Shown: positions 1-8,386 of the stretch, piece by piece
Layout of the letters: each line of letters starts with the position of its first letter
Numbering within the stretch: position 1 is the first letter of the stretch
Origin: a virus
Lineage: Duplodnaviria > Heunggongvirae > Uroviricota > Caudoviricetes
Reading direction: 5' to 3' (one strand)
IMG/VR virus record: IMGVR_UViG_2541047931_000004
Location: 1-8,386 of that record
Length of the DNA stretch: 8,386 nt
The notes under the pieces: generated by a model
What the model saw: only the letters and a program-made list of their open reading frames with translations
What the model was told of the DNA's origin: nothing
Databases searched by the model: none
Made by a program: the position numbers and the translations under genes

Positions 1-1284
1 TTACTTCTTCGCCTCTGCAACCACTTTACTACCCACGCCGCGGTTATTGTATTCCCACATGCGGTTGTAGTTAGTGTCATTCAGATTGCGCTGTATTTCG
101 TCGTTATCATCTACGCTGCCGGTATTACCCGCAAACGGACGATTAGAGATCACCGCATCGGCCCACGGTTTAGCCGTGTTAAAACCTTCGTTGATGGCGC
201 TATCACGGATCACCACCTGACCGTTGGTATTGGCATCAACATCCAGCGAGCGGCCCAGTTGCGCCACACCATCACCGAAAGCATTGAAACGGCTGTTTAC
301 GGCGAGGAAACCGTAGTAAATGTTGGACAGCGTAGCCGGTGCAAACACATACGCTTCTTGCTGAGTACGTGAGTTCACCACGCGGAATTCGGTGTTATCG
401 AACACCACTGCGCCGCGACCAGAAACGATATCCACATCCCCTTCAATGTAGCTGTTGGTCACCAGCGTACGCGGCTGACGATTCGTTTCCAGACGGTTCT
501 GCACACCGCTGTTGGTGACAAAGAAGGTGTTCTGACGACCGAGAATGTTAACGTTGTTAATCTGTACCTGGTCACCATCAGTACGCAGTGCCACCGCCGG
601 ATGGTTACCTGCATCTACGCTATCGCCCAGCGTGTTTTCGATGGTCAGATTTTGCAGTTGCAGGCCATTGTTTTGTGACCAGAAGACCGCAGAGCAGAGA
701 ACACCGATACTGTCGCTGCGTTTGCTCTGGCAGCTATCGTACATATACCACGCTGGTTTACCTGGCATATATTTGCCGCGCGGGTTGACGTCGTGACGCC
801 AGTCGGCAGGGCTCATGCCACCATCAAGGGAAAGCCCAATCTTCACATCAATCGGTTTTTCACCTGTACCGTACAGAGTAATTCCACCCGGAGCGGCAGG
901 GACATATACCGTTCCCTGATACTCACCAGGCATCACGGCAATATACTGGCGCTTGTTGGTACGCTTGATAATTGCCGCATCTACCGCCGCCTGAATCGTG
1001 GTATGCGTTACACCTTGAGTGCCCGCCGGGCCGACAACAAAGTCAGGTTGCGCAGGCAGGGTAATCAGGGAAGGATTCCACGCTGCAGCACCTGGTGTCA
1101 GGGATGAAAAATAGTGTTGAGCATCGAAATTCTGCGCTTCTTTTGCCGACAGAATCGGGCGAGAAGAGGTACCAGGCGCGGTTTGATCAGAAGGACGTTG
1201 ATCGGGCGGGGTTGAGCTACAGGCGGTCAGCGTCACGCCAAAAGCCAATGCCAGCGCCAGACGGGAAACTGAAAATGTGTTCAC
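1..1284 (-). CDS. ybhC: YbhC-like outer-membrane lipoprotein, pectinesterase-fold (CE8-like) putative acyl-CoA thioesterase; chromosomal gene flanking the prophage
   Basis: Complete 427-aa ORF, GTG start at 1284 with GGAG 6 nt upstream, TAA stop at 1..3. N-terminal lipoprotein signal with lipobox LTAC followed by SS. Pectinesterase-like motifs seen in the translation (GEYQG, PAVALR, LGRS). Sequence recognised from memory as E. coli YbhC, which lies beside lambda attB. Confidence 0.85.
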   Translation of the reverse strand: MNTFSVSRLALALAFGVTLTACSSTPPDQRPSDQTAPGTSSRPILSAKEAQNFDAQHYFSSLTPGAAAWNPSLITLPAQPDFVVGPAGTQGVTHTTIQAAVDAAIIKRTNKRQYIAVMPGEYQGTVYVPAAPGGITLYGTGEKPIDVKIGLSLDGGMSPADWRHDVNPRGKYMPGKPAWYMYDSCQSKRSDSIGVLCSAVFWSQNNGLQLQNLTIENTLGDSVDAGNHPAVALRTDGDQVQINNVNILGRQNTFFVTNSGVQNRLETNRQPRTLVTNSYIEGDVDIVSGRGAVVFDNTEFRVVNSRTQQEAYVFAPATLSNIYYGFLAVNSRFNAFGDGVAQLGRSLDVDANTNGQVVIRDSAINEGFNTAKPWADAVISNRPFAGNTGSVDDNDEIQRNLNDTNYNRMWEYNNRGVGSKVVAEAKK

Positions 1285-1330
1285 AGGTTGCTCCGGGCTA
1301 TGAAATAGAAAAATGAATCCGTTGAAGCCT

Positions 1331-1345
1331 GCTTTTTTATACTAA
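1331..1345. other. attL core (overlap region O), lambda-type
   Basis: Exact 15-bp GCTTTTTTATACTAA, 47 bp upstream of the ybhC start and about 75 bp from the int stop. Identical to the lambda att core as I recall it. Confidence 0.9.
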
Positions 1346-1425
1346 GTTGGCATTATAAAAAAGCATTGCTTATCAATTTGTTGCAACGAGCAGGTCACTA
1401 TCAGTCAAAATAAAATCATTATTTG
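1346..1425. promoter_or_regulatory. P' arm of attL: IHF H' site and three Int arm-type sites (P'1 to P'3)
   Basis: TATCAATTTGTTG at 1371..1383 fits the IHF consensus WATCAA-N4-TTR. AGGTCACTAT (1392..1401), CAGTCAAAAT (1402..1411) and AAAATCATTA (1412..1421) fit the Int arm-type consensus C/AAGTCACTAT. Matches the lambda P' arm from memory. Confidence 0.75.
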
Positions 1426-2489
1426 ATTTCAATTTTGTCCCACTCCCTGCCTCTGTCATCACGATACTGTGATGCCATGGTGTCCGACTTATGCCCGAGA
1501 AGATGTTGAGCAAATTTATCGCTTATCTGCTTCTCATAGAGTCTTGCAGACAAACTGCGCAACTCGTGAAAGGTTGGCGGATCTCCTTCGAAGGAGAGAC
1601 CTGATGCTTTTCGTGCGCGCATAAAATACCTTGATACTGTGCCGGATGAAAGCGGTTCGCGACGAGTAGATGCAATTATGGTTTCTCCGCCAAGAATCTC
1701 TTTGCATTTATCAAGTGTTTCCTTCATTGATATTCCGAGAGCATCAACATGCAATGCTGTTGGGATGGCAATTTTTACGCCTGTTTTGCTTTGCTCGACA
1801 TAAAGATATCCATCTACGATATCAGACCACTTCATTTCGCATAAATCACCAACTCGCTGCCCGGTAACAACAGCCAGTTCCATTGCAAGTCTTAACCAAC
1901 ATGGTGATGATTCTGCTGCTTGATAAATTTTCAGGTATTCGTCAGCCGTAAGCCTTGATCTCCTTACCTCTGATTTTGCTGCGCGAGTGGCAGCGACCGG
2001 GTTTGTTGTTATATGGCCTTCAGCTATTGCCTCTCGGAATGCATCGCTCAGTGTTGATCTGATTAACTTGGCTGACGCCGCCTTGCCCTCGTCTATGTAT
2101 CCATTGAGCATTGCCGCAATTTCTTTTGTGGTGATGTCTTCAAGTGGAGCATCAGGAAGACTCCTCCTTATTGCTTTAATTTTGCTCATGTAATTTATGA
2201 GTGTCTTCTGCTTGATTCCTCTGTTGGCGAGAATTTTTTCGTAGCGATCAAGCCATGAATGTAACGTAACAGAATTATCACTGTTGATTCTCGCCGTCAG
2301 AGGCTTGTGTTTGTGTCCTGAAAATAACTCAATGTTGGCCTGTATAGCTTCAGTGATTGCTATCCTCCTGTCTCTGCCTAATCCGAACTCTTTACCCGTC
2401 CTTGGGTCCCTGTAGCAGTAATATCCATTGTTTCTTATATAAAGGTTAGGGGGTAAATCCCGGCGCTCATGACTTCGCCTTCTTCCCAT
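1419..2489 (-). CDS. int: Tyrosine site-specific integrase, lambda Int (356 aa)
   Basis: 356-aa ORF starting MGRRRSHERRDLPPNLYIRNNGYYCYRDPRTGKEF, recognised as near-identical to lambda Int. Its first 23 nt overlap the end of xis, as in lambda. Confidence 0.97.
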   Translation of the reverse strand: MGRRRSHERRDLPPNLYIRNNGYYCYRDPRTGKEFGLGRDRRIAITEAIQANIELFSGHKHKPLTARINSDNSVTLHSWLDRYEKILANRGIKQKTLINYMSKIKAIRRSLPDAPLEDITTKEIAAMLNGYIDEGKAASAKLIRSTLSDAFREAIAEGHITTNPVAATRAAKSEVRRSRLTADEYLKIYQAAESSPCWLRLAMELAVVTGQRVGDLCEMKWSDIVDGYLYVEQSKTGVKIAIPTALHVDALGISMKETLDKCKEILGGETIIASTRREPLSSGTVSRYFMRARKASGLSFEGDPPTFHELRSLSARLYEKQISDKFAQHLLGHKSDTMASQYRDDRGREWDKIEIK

Positions 2490-2685
2490 TTCTGATCCTC
2501 TTCAAAAGGCTACCTGTTACTGGTCGATTTAAGTCAATCTTTACCGCTGATTCGTGGAACAGATACTCTCTTCCATCCTTAACCGGAGGAGGGAATATCC
2601 TGCACTCGCGTACCCATCGACGAACTGTTTCAAGGCTTCTTGGGCGTCGCTGGCGTGCGTTCCACTCCTGAAGTGTCAAGTACAT
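2467..2685 (-). CDS. xis: Excisionase Xis (72 aa)
   Basis: MYLTLQEWNARQRRPRSLETVRRWVRECRIFPPPVKDGREYLFHESAVKIDLNRPVTGSLLKRIRNGKKAKS, recognised as lambda Xis. Start taken at the internal ATG (2685) of the 85-aa six-frame ORF. Confidence 0.95.
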   Translation of the reverse strand: MYLTLQEWNARQRRPRSLETVRRWVRECRIFPPPVKDGREYLFHESAVKIDLNRPVTGSLLKRIRNGKKAKS

Positions 2686-2697
2686 CGCAAAGTCTCC

Positions 2698-2711
2698 GCA
2701 ATTACACGCAA
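2698..2711 (-). promoter_or_regulatory. cII-type activator site TTGC-N6-TTGC of the int promoter pI (-35 region)
   Basis: Minus strand reads TTGCGTGTAATTGC, ending 13 nt upstream of the xis ATG. This is the arrangement of lambda pI, whose transcript starts inside xis and so expresses int alone (established lambda knowledge). Confidence 0.6.
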
Positions 2712-2733
2712 GAAAAAGCCGCATTGATGCGGC
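2711..2733 (-). terminator. Putative intrinsic terminator just upstream of pI/xis
   Basis: On the minus strand, a 7-bp stem GCCGCAT/ATGCGGC with a 2-nt loop is followed by TTTTTCTT. Function not demonstrated. Confidence 0.4.
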
Positions 2734-2791
2734 GATGGTAGGTCTGGATATCTTGAGAAATGAACAGGCCTCATTGAGTGTGAGGCTGTGG

Positions 2792-3136
2792 TTAGTCCTT
2801 GCGTAGCTCGCTAATTCTTCTGTAAGTCTCTGGTGCTTTGTTTCCGTGTATCTTCATTTCAGACTTCAACAGAGCAACGAGGGAATCCCATTCGTTGAGG
2901 ATTCCTTTGAATGCCGGAACGCGCTTTGCAACCTTGTCGAATGAATCTCTGATTTCTGGAATCTGCTCAACAAGTGCAACGCATCGCCGGAAGTCTGCTG
3001 CGTCATGTGGAGCGCCGAAGTGATGACCATAGATATTTTTTTTCAGTCCACATGCGATTGAGGCAAGAGTTGCGCTACTGATGCCGACATCGCCAGTTGA
3101 TTGCCATTTCAAAACCTTCATAGCCAAATCTGACAT
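2792..3136 (-). CDS. Hypothetical phage protein (114 aa)
   Basis: ORF 2792..3163. Start preferred at 3136 (MSDLAMKVLKWQ) because GGAG lies 7 nt upstream; the ATG at 3163 overlaps the upstream stop (TGATG) and is the alternative. No family recognised. Confidence 0.6.
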   Translation of the reverse strand: MSDLAMKVLKWQSTGDVGISSATLASIACGLKKNIYGHHFGAPHDAADFRRCVALVEQIPEIRDSFDKVAKRVPAFKGILNEWDSLVALLKSEMKIHGNKAPETYRRISELRKD

Positions 3137-3162
3137 TTCTTGTCTCCAATAAAAAACCGCCA

Positions 3163-3330
3163 TCAGGCGTCTTGGTGTTCTTTCAGTTCTTCAATTCGAA
3201 TATTGGTTACGTCTGCATGCGCTATCTGCGCCCATATCATCCAGTGGTTATAGCAGTCGTTGATGTCCTCTGCTTCGATAACCCTGTCGAATGGCTCTCC
3301 ATTCCATTCACCTGTGACTCGGAAGTGCAT
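3163..3330 (-). CDS. Small hypothetical phage protein (55 aa), below the six-frame track cutoff
   Basis: Hand translation: MHFRVTGEWNGEPFDRVIEAEDINDCYNHWMIWAQIAHADVTNIRIEELKEHQDA. GGAG 7 nt upstream of the ATG; the stop overlaps the next start (TGATG). Weak recollection of a similar small protein near xis in lambdoid phages, unverified. Confidence 0.55.
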   Translation of the reverse strand: MHFRVTGEWNGEPFDRVIEAEDINDCYNHWMIWAQIAHADVTNIRIEELKEHQDA

Positions 3331-3340
3331 TTATCATCTC

Positions 3341-3368
3341 CATAAAACAAAACTCGCCGTAGCGAGTT
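3341..3368 (-). terminator. Putative intrinsic terminator between the DUF551-like gene and the 55-aa gene
   Basis: On the minus strand, stem AACTCGC / loop TACG / GCGAGTT followed by TTTGTTTTAT. Confidence 0.5.
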
Positions 3369-3430
3369 CAGATAAAAGAAATCCCCGCGAGTGCGAGGAT
3401 TGTTATTCACCTTTGACGGCAAGTTGCAGG

Positions 3431-4324
3431 TTAGCCACGGTTAACCTCCTGCGGCGGTTCTGGTAGAGGCATCCAGTGTGACGGTTTCCACGACGCACCA
3501 GGAATTATCCACCCATCATTAGCGTCAGGATGCCCCGGGATGTAAGTAGCCCATTTCATTCGCCAGTCACCTTTCCTGTCAAACTCCACGGCAACAAGAA
3601 CGGCTGTTTTGGTATTCGGCATTCGCTCACTACAGCTTATCCAACCATCCGGAGTTACCGGAACTTGCGGAATGGCTGTCTGCTCTCGAACGTCATTAGG
3701 CGCTATAGGTTCTGCTGCCAACTGACTGGCATATTTGTTAATGGTAACGATAAGCTCTTGCTCAGCCTCATCCAGACAATCACCGATACCTCGCCTGTCA
3801 CCGTCAAAATCATCGAAATCGGCACGAATCTTGGCAACCTTCTGGATTGCGGACAACACCTCACTAGGAATTACCGGATAGTTGGTTGACGTTTCCGCGA
3901 TTTCCCGAAAATTATTGGTTGACGAATTCTTGTTTTCCCGAAAGTTTCCGGACTGAAGCATGGCGGCGCGGCAGGCGTTCCAGCCTCTCACCTCTGCAAT
4001 AGCGGCAACAGCATCAACCGCGTACATGCTAAGAGGATTAGGCATTGGTTTTTCTTCCGGTACTACTGGAACGGGGGGAGCGGCGTAGACCTCAATAATT
4101 CCATTATCAATAGGCCATTCTCCATCCTTGAGGTAGTCACTTGTGCCGTCAACTTGCTGTTCTGCAATGTGGAATGCACCTATTGGTTTTGCTTCCAGCG
4201 ATGCCAGAGCAATTCGTGCCAGTTCTTCCGCTTCTTCTGCTGGCAGTACAACGTTGCTATCAGGTCCGTATGTTTCGCGCCACTGCTTGATTGTCAGCAG
4301 TCGCTCTTTGGTAATAGTGATCAT
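3431..4324 (-). CDS. DUF551-like domain phage protein (297 aa)
   Basis: C-terminal segment PDGWISCSERMPNTKTAVLVAVEFDRKGDWRMKWATY...WMPLPEPP resembles the DUF551 domain common in enterobacterial prophage proteins (from memory). AAGGA RBS; ATGA overlap with the upstream gene stop. Confidence 0.75.
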   Translation of the reverse strand: MITITKERLLTIKQWRETYGPDSNVVLPAEEAEELARIALASLEAKPIGAFHIAEQQVDGTSDYLKDGEWPIDNGIIEVYAAPPVPVVPEEKPMPNPLSMYAVDAVAAIAEVRGWNACRAAMLQSGNFRENKNSSTNNFREIAETSTNYPVIPSEVLSAIQKVAKIRADFDDFDGDRRGIGDCLDEAEQELIVTINKYASQLAAEPIAPNDVREQTAIPQVPVTPDGWISCSERMPNTKTAVLVAVEFDRKGDWRMKWATYIPGHPDANDGWIIPGASWKPSHWMPLPEPPQEVNRG

Positions 4325-4836
4325 GCCGCGTTTCCTTCTTTCTTATTAACAATTACACCGTCATATATTTCATTAAGGTGCCCTCTCAACTCCATGCGCC
4401 TTAATGCAGATAACATGTAATCGCATTCAACCTGCTTATTCCCAATAAAAGGTTTATCTTCAGGGTTACCCCAACAGCAATTCCCCTTGGGCCATCCATG
4501 TACTTTCCGTACTCTTCCGTTAACAACGTGAAGTAATCCCCAGCCGGAAGGTAAATCCTCAACTGAAATAATTCCCGGCTCACTAATAAAGAATCGCCAG
4601 TCGCCCATTCCAAGAGATGGATTTTTACGAAAACGCTTTTTTCTATCTGCCAACAAGTCAGCACGAGAACACTTCGCCTCTATCAGGCATGATGCTGAAT
4701 TTCTGAACCCCATAGCATCTGGCTGTTCTCCGGTACTGGTTACAGCTATAAAGCGGTCATGAAAACAAACCTTGAACCCGTTGCGCTTAAGGAACTTATA
4801 CGCAATCTGACAGAGTTCGCGGTGTGTTAACGCCAT
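4321..4836 (-). CDS. Putative PD-(D/E)XK nuclease-fold protein (171 aa), possibly MmcB-like
   Basis: Start taken at the internal ATG (MALTHRELCQIAYKF) with AAGGAG 7 nt upstream. Motif order helix with E (RELCQIAYKFLKRNG), then PD (GEQPDAMGF), then ExK (CLIEAKCS), consistent with the restriction-endonuclease-like fold. Family assignment is a guess. Confidence 0.7.
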   Translation of the reverse strand: MALTHRELCQIAYKFLKRNGFKVCFHDRFIAVTSTGEQPDAMGFRNSASCLIEAKCSRADLLADRKKRFRKNPSLGMGDWRFFISEPGIISVEDLPSGWGLLHVVNGRVRKVHGWPKGNCCWGNPEDKPFIGNKQVECDYMLSALRRMELRGHLNEIYDGVIVNKKEGNAA

Positions 4837-4837
4837 A

Positions 4838-5026
4838 TCACTCTCCTTTAGTGCGCAAGTGGTTTTTCCAGCGGTTTTGCGCCGCGCTGGGCTTTTTGCA
4901 AAAACCACAATCCATCATCCCGTAATATTTCATCAACCCCATCCGTCGGTTGCTGAGTCTCACCCACTGCCAGACGCCAGGAGCGTTTCTACGAACTAAC
5001 AGAATCTTTGCTTTACGGTTTTTCAT
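4838..5026 (-). CDS. Small basic ORF (62 aa), MKNRKAK copy 2
   Basis: MKNRKAKILLVRRNAPGVWQWVRLSNRRMGLMKYYGMMDCGFCKKPSAAQNRWKNHLRTKGE. Its start overlaps the stop of the upstream mini-ORF (ATGA), and its last codons contain the RBS of the nuclease gene. Weak RBS of its own; coding status uncertain. Confidence 0.35.
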   Translation of the reverse strand: MKNRKAKILLVRRNAPGVWQWVRLSNRRMGLMKYYGMMDCGFCKKPSAAQNRWKNHLRTKGE

Positions 5027-5199
5027 CTTACAGCGTACCCTTTCTTCCGCCTGTTCTGTGACGCAGTAGGCTTACGCTTTGCGGCAAAAGCCACCTGACC
5101 AAATGGATGGAGTACCGCTATCTTATGGTTGCTAATAACCAGCTCCACCACACGCACAGGTCGCTGTAAAAAAAGTCGTTTTGCCTTACGGTTTTTCAT
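5023..5199 (-). CDS. Small basic ORF (58 aa), MKNRKAK copy 1
   Basis: Hand translation: MKNRKAKRLFLQRPVRVVELVISNHKIAVLHPFGQVAFAAKRKPTASQNRRKKGYAVR. AGGAGA 8 nt upstream. Shares its first 7 residues and about 20 nt with the downstream 62-aa ORF. Coding status uncertain. Confidence 0.35.
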   Translation of the reverse strand: MKNRKAKRLFLQRPVRVVELVISNHKIAVLHPFGQVAFAAKRKPTASQNRRKKGYAVR

Positions 5200-5371
5200 C
5201 GCTTTGCTCTCCTGCGTCTCTTTGCTGCTCGTCGTGCCGCTGCAATACCGGTATGGCGGCGCTTTGGTGACGGGATGATGTTGTCAGCCATCAGTACATG
5301 TGGCTTTGCAATTAGCGCAGAAGCCCAAAAACGAGTCGGGTACGGTAACAAGCCGATACATGCCACACGCA

Positions 5372-5848
5372 TTACTCACCTCCTTTGATGCGAATGCCAG
5401 CGGTGCGTGGCACATTAACTTCCACGATGCGCACTGTTGGTTTGTACATCTCAATCGCTGTCAGCCAGTCAGCTCCTGTCATGCGCTTTTCCGCATCGCC
5501 ATTAGTCCACTGAACCGGTACACCAATAGCCTTCATCGCGATTTCTATTTCCCCGGCAATGGCGCTTTTTCCGCAACCAGTAAAACCAGATACAACGACA
5601 AGAACTTCGCCTTTTGCTGGTTTTATTTCCCGCGTCTCCATCTCTGCAATTCGGCATATAGAATCAATATTTGTGTCTTCTAGGCGTTTAACTTCATCCA
5701 ACAATGCCAACGCGATATCTGGCGAAAAGTGCTTCATAAAATCGTTAAGCGCATTAATTCGCTGATCGAAAGGCATTACAGGTGCTTCACCAGCAATTTT
5801 TGTTTTTTCAGCGATTTCACGAAGCTTTTGATAATCAATCTTGCTCAC
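5372..5848 (-). CDS. Putative Ead/Ea22-like family protein (158 aa) with a C-terminal Walker-A-like motif
   Basis: GTG start at 5848 preferred: AAGGAGG 6 nt upstream and GTGA overlap with the upstream stop; the six-frame start at 5869 has no RBS. The N-terminus [15 protein letters not shown] resembles Ea22-like proteins as I recall them. C-terminal [28 protein letters not shown] fits GxxxxGKS. Confidence 0.65.
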
Positions 5849-6012
5849 TGGTTGCCTCCTTTGCGCCACATCGCATTCAGATATTTGTTTTGATTCACTG
5901 ATGGAAAAGAATTTCTCTTAAGCAATTCCTCTCTCGATGGCATTGGCTTTACGCGTTGGCGAATAATCATTTCTGCCGGAAGAATGCCGGGATTGTATGC
6001 AAGTCCTCTCAT
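5845..6012 (-). CDS. Small hypothetical protein (55 aa)
   Basis: [55 protein letters not shown]. Start at 6012 chosen for GAGG 8 nt upstream; an alternative ATG at 6030 overlaps the upstream gene by 8 nt. Stop overlaps the Ea22-like GTG start. Confidence 0.4.
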
Positions 6013-6022
6013 GGTAAATTCC

Positions 6023-6319
6023 TCAGTCATTACTGATAGCGCCATAGCGTGAGCGGTAATTACGCAGGCGCGGGTCGATATATTCAGGGAAGTGGGTATA
6101 TGTGGCTTTGCGGAATGGTCGGATTGATGTTTCGTTTGTTCGGTCCTTCTCATTTTTTAACGCGAGTTGTATATCGCGTCGGTACATCCGTTCTGCTTTT
6201 GTTTCTGGTGGCAGATCGATAAACGTGTCGAAAATGTTTTTGATATTTTCCAGCACCTCCGCCTTGGAGCTACCGGAGCAATTGCGCGGGGCATCCGCAC
6301 CATACAGAGGCGCTGGCAT
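6023..6319 (-). CDS. Hypothetical phage protein (98 aa)
   Basis: ORF begins 23 nt after the SSB-like gene stop, with a weak AGG RBS. Charged, lysine- and arginine-rich. No family recognised. Confidence 0.55.
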
Positions 6320-6342
6320 AATGGGAGCCTTATTTTCAGTAA

Positions 6343-6930
6343 TCAGAAAGCAGGGTAATCGTTCTGGCTGTAACCATAATCATCTGCATGATTCTGGCTT
6401 ACGTTTTTAGAGCGATTGTCTTTATCTTTGAGATTGGCAACCATGTTGGCGATAGTTTCTGGTTGCTTGCCTTCTGCCTTTTCTTTAAGGGTTTGACCTG
6501 TTTGTGCAATAAACGGGATGCGTATTTCCATCTGGTAGTTGTCTGCGCCAGTCTTTTTGTTTGTAGTTAATACTTTCTGGAGCACTAACCCGATTTTCTT
6601 TCCATGAAATTCAGGTGCAACAAATTTACTGGCGGAAACCATATGCTGCGTTAATTGTCCAATCCCGGCACACCCCATCATGGCGTGAACGACATTTGCG
6701 CCAAATTTGTTTTCCGTTCCGTCATTTTTCTGAACACAGACGCTAAGATATTGGATTTTACGTCCGTCGTCGGATTCTCCAGAAAACTCAATAAATTTGG
6801 CTCCTTTTTCTGATTGCTTTAGTTCTGCTTCAGTAATGGTAATGATATGGGCGCCAGTTTCGTTAATAAAACCACCTTGCCCTGCGGTCAGTGCTGCTTC
6901 TTCGTTATAAGTAAAAATCACGTTGCTCAT
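6343..6930 (-). CDS. Putative phage ssDNA-binding-like partner of Sak4 (195 aa)
   Basis: ATGA overlap with the Sak4-like gene stop; AAGGAA RBS. C-terminal tail DDYGYSQNDYPAF is acidic/aromatic and ends in Phe, like the C-terminal tips of E. coli SSB and T7 gp2.5. No canonical SSB motifs recognised; function inferred from tail and context. Confidence 0.6.
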   Translation of the reverse strand: MSNVIFTYNEEAALTAGQGGFINETGAHIITITEAELKQSEKGAKFIEFSGESDDGRKIQYLSVCVQKNDGTENKFGANVVHAMMGCAGIGQLTQHMVSASKFVAPEFHGKKIGLVLQKVLTTNKKTGADNYQMEIRIPFIAQTGQTLKEKAEGKQPETIANMVANLKDKDNRSKNVSQNHADDYGYSQNDYPAF

Positions 6931-7607
6931 GCGGCGTTTTCCTTAATTTGATGAACATTATTGATGCCGTAGTAATCACAAACAGTGGCATCGACGAAAG
7001 AGAGATCGTTATCAATCTCATTGGAATCAAACATTCCCATTGGGGATTTGACAGTGTCTGCACCGTTGTTTTTCGTGGTGAAAAAGAACTGGTCATCGCG
7101 GGTAAGAGTGCGAAGAACTATAGTAAACATGCCTTCGACAGTGATTTTCTCGTCCAGCATTTTGCCGATAGTTTTCATTTTCACGCGCCCCATAGGGGTT
7201 TCTTCGGTATGTGCAAGAAAATAGACTCTCAGGTCATCAGGTGCATCCTGTGCAGCCTTAATCACCTCCCATGCGTGGCGGCCTATCTCAGTAAATTTAT
7301 CAAACGATTTTTCTTCTGAGCGGCGCATAAACTCATTGCTCATCACATACTGGAAGTCATCAACAATAACGATTCTTTTTCCGTATTCGTGAGCACGCTT
7401 AATTACAGCAACTATTACGTCCCATTTGTCAGTGGTAACTACGGTTCCTTTTTTTGCTCTGGCATCCCATGCAAGCCAGTCTTTTGATTTAAATGGTAGC
7501 GGCTTGCCTATTGGTTTTATAAGTATTGCTTCCTCTGGATTGATATTTCTCATGCTGGTTGATTTTCCGGTGCCAGATTCACCGAGTATTAATGTCGCAG
7601 TTCCCAT
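6927..7607 (-). CDS. Sak4-like RecA-fold recombination ATPase (AAA_24-type core, 226 aa)
   Basis: Walker A GESGTGKST at residues 9..17 and Walker B-like RIVIVDD. Size and position match Sak4-type single-strand annealing proteins of phages. GAGG RBS 6 nt upstream. Confidence 0.8.
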   Translation of the reverse strand: MGTATLILGESGTGKSTSMRNINPEEAILIKPIGKPLPFKSKDWLAWDARAKKGTVVTTDKWDVIVAVIKRAHEYGKRIVIVDDFQYVMSNEFMRRSEEKSFDKFTEIGRHAWEVIKAAQDAPDDLRVYFLAHTEETPMGRVKMKTIGKMLDEKITVEGMFTIVLRTLTRDDQFFFTTKNNGADTVKSPMGMFDSNEIDNDLSFVDATVCDYYGINNVHQIKENAA

Positions 7608-7615
7608 AATTTGCC

Positions 7616-7804
7616 TCAGAATGGTAATTCGGATGGGCAGGAAAGAAATTCGCGCTCATTCATGCGCTCTCTTTGCGCCTGCCATAAACAAAGTTGTTTC
7701 TTTGATTTATCTCCCGCTTTACGCCAGTAACGAGCCTCAGCAATGTGATATTCTCTTTTTAATCGACTTAACTCTGGAGTTTTCGCCAGTTCTACCGGAA
7801 TCAT
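7616..7804 (-). CDS. Hypothetical phage protein (62 aa) occupying the position of lambda gam
   Basis: Start at the second ATG (MIPVELAKTPELSRLKREYHIAEARYWRK) with GGAGG 5 nt upstream; ATGA overlap with the kil-like stop. Not similar to lambda Gam as I recall it. Confidence 0.55.
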   Translation of the reverse strand: MIPVELAKTPELSRLKREYHIAEARYWRKAGDKSKKQLCLWQAQRERMNEREFLSCPSELPF

Positions 7805-7914
7805 TTTGACCTCCATTTTCTGTAGGCTTCTACGGCTTCACGAAACATCTTTTCATCGCCAATAAAAGTGGCGATAGTGAATTTAGTCTGGATAGCCATA
7901 AGTGTTTTATCCAT
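7801..7914 (-). CDS. kil: Kil-like host-killing protein (37 aa), C-terminus diverged from lambda
   Basis: MDKTLMAIQTKFTIATFIGDEKMFREAVEAYRKWRSK. The first 27 or so residues match lambda Kil (MDQTLMAIQTKFTIATFIGDEKMFREAV) from memory. AGGAG RBS inside the cIII 3' end; overlaps cIII by 8 nt. Confidence 0.6.
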   Translation of the reverse strand: MDKTLMAIQTKFTIATFIGDEKMFREAVEAYRKWRSK

Positions 7915-8047
7915 TTTTGGGAACTCCTGGCTGATTAAGTATGTCGATAAGGCGTTTCCATCCATCACGTAATTTACGTGTGATTCGTTCAAGTAAAGAT
8001 TCGGAAGGGCAGCCAGCAACAGGCCACCCTGCAATGGCATATTGCAT
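7907..8047 (-). CDS. cIII: CIII, FtsH-inhibitor regulator of lysogeny (46 aa, C-terminally shorter than the 54-aa lambda CIII)
   Basis: MQYAIAGWPVAGCPSESLLERITRKLRDGWKRLIDILNQPGVPKNG matches lambda CIII from memory, including the core helix ESLLERITRKLRDGWKRLIDIL. AAGGAG 6 nt upstream of the ATG. Confidence 0.85.
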   Translation of the reverse strand: MQYAIAGWPVAGCPSESLLERITRKLRDGWKRLIDILNQPGVPKNG

Positions 8048-8110
8048 GGTGTGCTCCTTATTTATACATAACGAAAAACGCCTCGAGTGAAGCGTTATTG
8101 GTATGCATAT

Positions 8111-8134
8111 AAAAAGGCCCTCACACTGGAGGGC
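8111..8134 (-). terminator. Putative intrinsic terminator upstream of cIII
   Basis: On the minus strand, stem GCCCTC / loop CAGTGT / GAGGGC followed by CTTTTTAT. Position resembles the lambda tL region before cIII (recalled, not verified). Confidence 0.5.
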
Positions 8135-8227
8135 AAAGAAGATTTCCAATAATCAGAACAAGTCGGCTCCTGTTTAGTTACGAGCGACATTGCTCACATA
8201 GCAGACTCGTAAATCTGCTATAGGCGC

Positions 8228-8386
8228 TTATTCGCATCGCATGACAACATCAAATTTTTCGAGATTACTTTGTCGCAACAATCCTTCTTCTACGCGGTCA
8301 GCTTTTCTATAATTATCAAATTCGAAATGTTTAATTACTTCTTTTGTTTCTCGCTCTATAACTTCAACGATGTATTTCTTATTCAT
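8228..8386 (-). CDS. Small AT-rich hypothetical ORF (52 aa); ATG is the last 3 nt of the window, so RBS and true start are not visible
   Basis: Hand translation: MNKKYIVEVIERETKEVIKHFEFDNYRKADRVEEGLLRQSNLEKFDVVMRCE, stop TAA at 8228..8230. Local AT content is clearly higher than the rest of the window. Could extend beyond the window. Confidence 0.35.
   Translation of the reverse strand: MNKKYIVEVIERETKEVIKHFEFDNYRKADRVEEGLLRQSNLEKFDVVMRCE

Follow-up and report, generated by a model that had tools for sequence, protein, structure and literature searches.

Three putative small basic genes, two of them related, in the early operon of a lambda-like prophage of Escherichia coli

We analysed a window of 8,386 nucleotides (nt), meaning the whole stretch of DNA under study, which corresponds to positions 1 to 8,386 of the IMG/VR virus record IMGVR_UViG_2541047931_000004 (Caudoviricetes). 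It covers the left arm of an E. coli prophage of the lambda-like kind, integrated next to ybhC. On its minus strand, three small open reading frames (ORFs), called A, B and C, form an overlapping chain at 4838..5372. In our judgement it is fairly likely that they are three real small genes of the early operon of this prophage, with ORF A distinct from the others and ORFs B and C paralogs found in recombining arrays. The features of the segment were as follows.

5372..5196, minus strand: ORF A, 58 amino acids (aa), Arg-rich, phrog_13831; start ATG overlapping the Ea22-like gene's TAA, stop TGA overlapping ORF B's ATG.
5199..5023, minus strand: ORF B, 58 aa, phrog_1380, body type B, with the internal tail ...QNRRKKGYAVR*.
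5026..4838, minus strand: ORF C, 62 aa, phrog_1380, body type C, with the terminal tail ...QNRWKNHLRTKGE*.
5375..5386, minus strand: ribosome-binding site (RBS) of ORF A, AAAGGAGGTGAG, within the last codons of the Ea22-like gene (...IRIKGGE*).
5180..5199, minus strand: first copy of the 20-nt start repeat, ATGAAAAACCGTAAGGCAAA, codons 1-7 of ORF B; its first four bases are the ATGA overlap with the stop of ORF A.
5007..5026, minus strand: second copy of the 20-nt start repeat, ATGAAAAACCGTAAAGCAAA, codons 1-7 of ORF C; its first four bases are the ATGA overlap with the stop of ORF B.
4834..4849, minus strand: terminal junction AAAGGAGAG-TGA-T-ATG; the last codons of ORF C (KGE*) hold the RBS of the next gene, which starts 2 nt past the stop.
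4321..4836, minus strand: downstream gene of 171 aa with a PD-(D/E)xK-like motif, context only.
5372..5869, minus strand: upstream Ead/Ea22-like gene, Pfam Ead_Ea22 at E=1.6e-6, context only.

A sequence-only reading of this DNA had described a 62-aa (4838..5026) and a 58-aa (5023..5199) ORF on the minus strand, both beginning with MKNRKAK, and had noted that the stop of each ORF overlapped the next start as ATGA. All of this was seen in the sequence. The repeat of about 20 nt that it had placed at the two starts was also present, and 5180..5199 and 5007..5026 were identical at 19 of 20 positions. In addition, ATGAAAAACCGTAARGCAAA gave two exact matches against 0.01 expected by chance, and none of 200 shuffles gave two. 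The description of the peptides as very basic was borne out for all three, with 15-16 Lys and Arg residues against 1-2 Asp and Glu and an isoelectric point of 11.3-12.0. The net charge of the small proteins of the array was +14 to +15. The first ORF had to be redrawn. It had been given as 31 aa without a clear RBS, and the same frame opened at the ATG 5372..5370 after the strong RBS in the end of the Ea22-like gene, which yielded 58 aa. The internal ATG that had been taken as the start was M28 of ORF A. It lay inside a 7-codon stretch that was deleted in frame in 933W, where ORF A had 51 aa. The junctions were TAATG (Ea22-like gene/ORF A), ATGA (A/B), ATGA (B/C) and TGAtATG (C/171-aa gene), and the Ea22-like/ORF A junction with its RBS was also found in related loci. 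Overlaps of the same kind recurred elsewhere in the operon (6930/6927 and 4324/4321), so the chaining was not special to A, B and C.

ORFs B and C belonged to one family. ORF B matched phrog_1380 at E=6.5e-23, with residues 1-58 on profile positions 1-60 of 62, and ORF C matched it at E=1e-40, with residues 1-62 on positions 1-62 of 62. The two had been said to diverge completely after seven residues. However, BLASTP aligned them with 37% identity over 54 residues at E=5e-10, and the motifs SN(R/H)(R/K) and K-P-(S/T)-A-x-QNR were common to both. Because of this alignment, the end-to-end matches to one profile and the internal motifs, B and C are old paralogs that arose by whole-gene duplication and are homologous over their full length. 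The motifs M(K/N)NRKA, SN(R/H)(R/K) and QNR, which mark a phrog_1380 member in a protein of about 60 aa, were all seen in the alignments. The family consensus consisted of the N-terminal M(K/N)NRKAKxL, the first hairpin (I/V/L)SN(R/H)(R/K) and the start of the C-terminal helix K-P-S-A-A-QNRWKNH, and the stretches separating these three motifs were highly variable. N3, R4, N26 and R52 were invariant, and M1, K5, A6, L9, S25, A48, Q50 and N51 were near-invariant. Sixty homologs of ORF C were found in Escherichia and Salmonella.

The arrays were compared in 219 related loci from IMG/VR and GenBank phages, which gave 116 distinct array contexts and 80 distinct family genes. Arrays in related phages had 1-3 copies, and the bodies were of at least seven types. 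We found single copies (C, D, E and F), pairs (B-C, H-D, G-D, B-D, C-D and G-E) and a triple (B-C-D). Internal copies ended with ...QNR(R/E)(K)KGYAVR* and an ATGA overlap, with another copy next, in 53 of 53 cases. The last copy of an array ended with ...QNRWKNHLRTKGE* or a close variant, and this terminal tail held the RBS of the next gene, whichever gene came next. The downstream gene was one of at least five unrelated genes among the loci, all joined via the TGAtATG junction. The internal junction ...cagaacaggcggaagaaagggtacgc(a/t)gtaagATGAAAAACCGTAAAGCAAAG was nearly identical in arrays with different bodies. The C body of the window, which carries the terminal tail, was identical at 135 of 138 nt to that of locus L087, which carries the internal tail, and the tail switch point between the two was AAAAAGCC, inside the conserved KKP codons. 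In addition, the B-C-D triple resembled a recombinant between B-C and C-D arrays. Since the same body carries either tail, these comparisons show that copies are gained, lost and exchanged by recombination inside the conserved ends. Recombination in the conserved terminal coding segments is also the reason why the 3' tail depends on what comes next.

Selection was estimated by the pooled Nei-Gojobori method. Among the 80 distinct family genes, the invariant residues varied at third codon positions only, as in S25 (AGC/AGT), N26 (AAC/AAT) and G36 (GGG/GGA/GGT). The codons of R52 were CGC, AGG or AGA. Within types, the ratio of non-synonymous to synonymous rates (dN/dS) was 0.11-0.44, with 0.11 for type B and 0.29 for type C. 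Between types, the proportion of non-synonymous differences (pN) was 0.055 against a proportion of synonymous differences (pS) of 0.48 in the N-terminal motif, and 0.16 against about 1.0 in the SNRR motif. In the variable core, pN between types approached pS.

ORF A showed the same tendency in a different family. It matched phrog_13831 at E=2.2e-41, with residues 1-58 on profile positions 1-58 of 58. Read in its own frame it had a pN/pS of 0.24, compared with 3.6 and 0.85 for the two alternative frames. Of its 31 variable sites, 16 were at third codon positions, and indels among its homologs were in frame. The homologs had 56-61 aa and were found in E. coli, E. albertii and Salmonella. Those down to about 60% identity retained the pattern GLLP.P.R.W...KPH...P.PKRRHTGIAAARRAAKKRRRAKR. 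The protein had a conserved N-terminal half and an Arg-rich, predicted helix at the C-terminus. An ORF A-like gene lay ahead of most arrays. In the loci without ORF A, its last 20-25 nt persisted as the leader of the first family copy, and the ends of the deletion fell in two Shine-Dalgarno-like sequences, AAAGGAG/GCAGGAG. The comparison of synonymous and non-synonymous change across homologs, which had been proposed for these reading frames, came out in support of coding. By this selection pattern, A, B and C are three real protein-coding genes under purifying selection.

Several variants were noted around ORF A. A widespread frameshifted allele (P0164, 95 contigs) had the Arg-rich tail swapped for HQSAAIPVLHRHDEQQRNAGEQNDEKP, with a stop within the first family gene. 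At 5372..5386 and 4838..4849 of the window, and with reference to loci L005, L023, L118, L120 and L170, the Ea22-like gene and the last family copy ended alike (...IRIKGGE* and ...LRTKGE*), both from a shared AAAGGAG-containing junction. In some loci that cleanly lacked ORF A between two AAAGGAG-type sequences, the Ea22-like gene extended 13 nt into the first family gene.

Some observations weigh against a reading of the segment as three genes. ORF A had low diversity (the 31 variable sites), which made its selection test no more than moderately strong. A near-identical RefSeq plasmid record annotated only C (WP_000797279.1) and left out A and B. A few copies were broken, including a frameshift of B in L062, premature stops in L176 and L177, and the frameshift allele of ORF A. 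Such broken copies fit dispensable accessory genes. The refuting outcome set out by the sequence-only reading was frames disrupted in homologs or a single longer gene that is intact; the check spoke for coding, with only a few broken copies among about 170 copies in the 116 contexts.

Public gene models of this region were also compared with the three frames. The RefSeq gene VT2-Sap08 (155 aa, matching phrog_12350) of VT2-Sakai (NC_000902.1; L219, 1222-1689) started inside the Ea22-like gene, read the DNA of ORF A in another frame with a pN/pS of 0.85, and then reached ORF C. Its frame through ORF A was closed by a stop in the window (equivalent stretch 4838..5372). This gene model is probably wrong, and the selection pattern favours two genes, A (51 aa) and C (62 aa). 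Proteins P0035, P0080, P0090 and P0095 were chimeras, in which the front part of a family member was joined to the body of a DUF4014, a 171-aa, a 69-aa MAIAASYTMHLYCDC or an Ea22-like gene. Their appearance suggests deletions that crossed a gene boundary and kept the frame. P0054 and P0060 had a centre in the +1 frame (GETQQPTDGVNETLRDDGLWF) between two conserved ends in the normal frame, which may reflect sequencing errors or double frameshifts that compensate each other. The idea of programmed frameshifting at the ATGA overlaps was rejected. The run ATGAAAAAC has only five A's and lies after the stop, so that the upstream frame has no canonical slippery heptamer there.

The conserved ends could be read in another way, as mainly nucleotide-level signals that serve as recombination handles and as elements of translation initiation and coupling, so that the peptides come along. 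This reading is unlikely, and part of the data fits it. Junction sequences were nearly identical among arrays whose bodies strongly differed, array position strictly set the tail type, and a crossover was mapped within the conserved KKP codons. The terminal tail KGE* encodes the RBS AAAGGAG of the next gene, a similar ...IRIKGGE* junction occurs in the Ea22-like gene, and ORF A was cleanly gone between two Shine-Dalgarno-like sequences in some loci. However, the residues of the N-terminal seven codons were invariant and their codons varied (AAA/AAG, GCA/GCT, AAC/AAT), in line with the pS of 0.48 against a pN of 0.055. The distant members P0094, P0096, P0089 and P0088 still had NRKA, SNR and QNR, encoded by different codons and set in different contexts, and the central SNRR motif was equally conserved though it lies at no junction. 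Nucleotide-level and protein-level constraint probably operate together on the conserved ends.

Much less room was left for the remaining explanations. The sequence-only reading had first suggested that a duplication of about 20 nt gave two otherwise unrelated frames the same start. This agrees with the 19 of 20 identical positions at the starts and with a remainder that is far less alike (the mean column identity over the whole alignment, the 20 nt included, was 76%). It is nevertheless very improbable, and the alignment, profile and motif results refute it. B and C aligned over 54 residues at E=5e-10, one PHROG profile was matched end to end by both, internal and C-terminal motifs were common to them, and each type occurred in other array combinations. 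The two real mini-proteins of that suggestion were kept, and the short duplication gave way to a duplication of the whole gene.

That the three ORFs are fragments of one decayed longer gene is scarcely credible either. Longer database entries with the C sequence do exist, namely VT2-Sap08 (155 aa), phrog_12350 (155 positions), phrog_9263 (230 positions) and P0001 (102 aa). However, the 155-aa form uses the DNA of ORF A in the frame with a pN/pS of 0.85 that is closed by the stop in the window, and the remaining long forms are fusions with the Ea22-like or the downstream gene. The stop/start overlaps were retained in 53 of 53 internal junctions, each frame was under purifying selection, and each unit was a complete family member on profile positions 1-62. 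A non-coding RNA or DNA element with accidental ORFs is highly improbable as well: A and B are unannotated in RefSeq and the junction nucleotides are highly conserved, but no covariance model of Rfam matched at E<=1 in 4300..5900 on both strands, the RNA folding energy was no better than that of shuffled sequence (z=0.20), no promoter-like or terminator-like sites were found in the region, indels kept the frame, and substitutions were codon-periodic, concentrated at third positions.

An AlphaFold2 (AF2) model of the family, made for ORF C with a 30-sequence alignment, had a predicted local distance difference test score (pLDDT) of 84, with helices at 4-11 and 48-59 and strands at 20-23, 28-32 and 38-43. 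In this predicted fold, the invariant residues mapped to helix 1, the first hairpin and the beginning of helix 2. The helix-strand-strand-strand-helix arrangement matched no solved structure. The AF2 model of ORF A had low confidence (pLDDT 62), with a C-terminal Arg-rich helix at residues 40-57, and was set aside as too uncertain. No sequence library assigned a function to A, B or C: the PHROG families matched are of unknown function, Pfam, the PDB sequence profile, NCBIfam and PADLOC gave no informative match, and no PADLOC model matched A, B, C or either neighbour at E<=1.

Several candidate assignments were rejected. DUF4014 (PF13198) did not match A, B or C at E<=1, and the label on some database hits came from chimeras or the neighbouring gene. 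In P0035, for example, the first 32 residues of C are fused to the DUF4014 body. A C2H2/JAZ zinc finger (PF12171) was suggested by the CxxC...H pattern in C and scored 13.3 bits against a cut-off of 22.6 (E=0.096). It was dismissed because the family does not conserve C41 and C44, and B lacks both. An AP2/lambda-integrase arm-binding fold (three strands and a helix) showed no fold or profile similarity to the family. In the case of the double-stranded-RNA-binding domain (dsRBD), which was guessed from the order of elements, there was no three-dimensional fold match to solved dsRBDs.

We tentatively propose that A, B and C may be small nucleic-acid-binding accessory proteins acting early after infection or induction, a role that is possible and no better than that. 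The proposal is made because of the net charge, the nature of the invariant residues (Asn, Arg, Lys, Gln and Ser), the helix-sheet-helix fold of the model and the location of the genes in the early operon. The genes would be read from the early leftward (pL) transcript, and the overlapping stop and start codons (TAATG, ATGA, ATGA and TGAtATG) may couple their translation. A bolder idea, which we regard as doubtful, is that the arrays are a recombination-driven cassette system whose invariant ends double as a binding surface and as homology handles. If so, the recombination functions of the phage, encoded just upstream, could shuffle, duplicate or delete hypervariable central cassettes. This would diversify a small effector that is in an arms race against a changing target in the host or a competitor, such as a defence system, and the position-specific tails would mark two functional classes, internal and terminal.

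The operon around the segment is of a familiar type. One end of the window has the genes for a lambda-type integrase (1419..2489) and an excisionase, and a single minus-strand run of overlapping genes leads there. The operon contains Kil, an AAA ATPase, the P22-type anti-RecBCD protein Abc2, DUF2737, Ead/Ea22-like, DUF551, Xis, a lambda-type Int and several unnamed genes. A, B and C occupy a variable accessory segment with recombination genes on one side and xis/int on the other. The 171-aa downstream gene had been called a nuclease. Its PHROG matches were phrog_9263 and phrog_631, both of unknown function, and a weak one to phrog_5429 'DNA repair protein' (E=0.001), and it had no match in Pfam, NCBIfam or PADLOC. 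What supports a nuclease is this weak PHROG match and a PD-(D/E)xK-like motif (D...EAK) spotted by eye, and nothing more. In the C-terminal half of the Ead/Ea22-like gene (5372..5869) there was a motif resembling Walker A, GFTGCGKS, and the gene gave weak matches to families of APS kinase and AAA proteins. The GTG at 5848 is probably where this gene really starts; that codon overlaps the DUF2737 stop (GTGA) and yields the usual N-terminus MSKIDYQ...

An exhaustive profile search of 1.84 billion representative proteins gave 48 relatives only, and a word-indexed search found members in Escherichia and Salmonella only. A pattern scan of species-representative genomes, one per species, gave chance matches only and no family member. 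The carriers among phage records included Shiga toxin (Stx) phages, P1-like phages, phiV10, HK225, Salmonella phage Solent, a Yersinia phage and the 121-kilobase (kb) phage Av-05. B/C-like DNA was found in 588 of 5426 complete E. coli genomes, on chromosomes and plasmids, and 136 of those had the B-C pair. Plasmids accounted for 295 of the 698 B/C places in E. coli genomes. In locus L001 (E. coli 1303 plasmid p1303_95, NZ_CP009168.1, 5001-5751), the A-B-C stretch and its flanks were 99.9% identical to the window. This 95-kb plasmid also carries Phd/Doc genes, and related copies occur in the records P1, RCS47 and D6. It was therefore concluded that the lambdoid exo-xis segment moved into P1-like phage-plasmids. 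In Escherichia phage Av-05 (NC_025830.1, 70873-71016), a family member of about 50% identity lay outside the lambdoid exo-xis context.

According to published work (PMC8614690), the set of exo-xis genes that lies downstream of ea22 is variable, and Stx phages show duplications in it. The A, B and C genes are unmentioned in that account of the region. MKNRKAK was in no paper that we found, locus-tag searching gave unrelated matches only, and the exo-xis literature concerns other genes. The family was not in the exo-xis stretch of phi24B, the model phage for functional work on this region, so the published phenotypes do not cover A, B and C.

In its present state, the feature is ordinary, poorly annotated phage accessory cargo, and its families are already catalogued (phrog_1380 and phrog_13831). 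No concept is changed by it, since operons of this kind normally contain overlapping chains of early genes that are small, basic and uncharacterised. The genes sit in the part of lambdoid and Stx phage genomes that is least understood, and the region is known to affect the choice between lysis and lysogeny. B/C-like DNA is present in about one in nine complete E. coli genomes, including the Stx prophages of enterohaemorrhagic E. coli and P1-like phage-plasmids. Public annotation is inconsistent, with A and B unannotated in RefSeq records and a wrong-frame 155-aa gene in VT2-Sakai. The corrected gene models and the rule that links tail to position give a clean base for expression and knockout work. 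In addition, the architecture of conserved ends and variable core documents recombination inside short conserved coding segments.

Finally, the genes were compared with known systems. Known small genes between the recombination genes and xis, which are expressed early from pL, occupy the same genomic niche as A, B and C, whereas A, B and C match none of their Pfam or PHROG families. The family resembles the dsRBD in the order of helix, three strands and helix and in size. Its conserved residues also lie in the three regions through which a dsRBD contacts RNA, namely helix 1, the first hairpin and the beginning of helix 2. Lambda N and HK022 Nun are arginine-rich-motif peptides. Like them, ORF A is a phage early gene product, and it ends in an Arg-rich predicted helix, TGIAAARRAAKRRRRAKR. 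It has no sequence homology to them, and the resemblance is compositional only. Phrog_13831 (unknown function) is matched by ORF A over its full length, of which the C-terminal 31 residues only had been seen before. Two further entries look like wrong-start or fused calls: in phrog_12350, C occupies positions 94-155, and in phrog_9263 it occupies 1-61 and is followed by the downstream gene. Phrog_1380 (unknown function) has the same size, motifs and phage context as B and C, with no difference in kind. Conserved gene-boundary linkers in the modular evolution of lambdoid phages are the Susskind-Botstein model. The arrays are like these linker sequences in that short conserved gene ends coincide with points of module exchange, and they differ from them in that the conserved segments lie inside the coding sequence and are conserved at the protein level.
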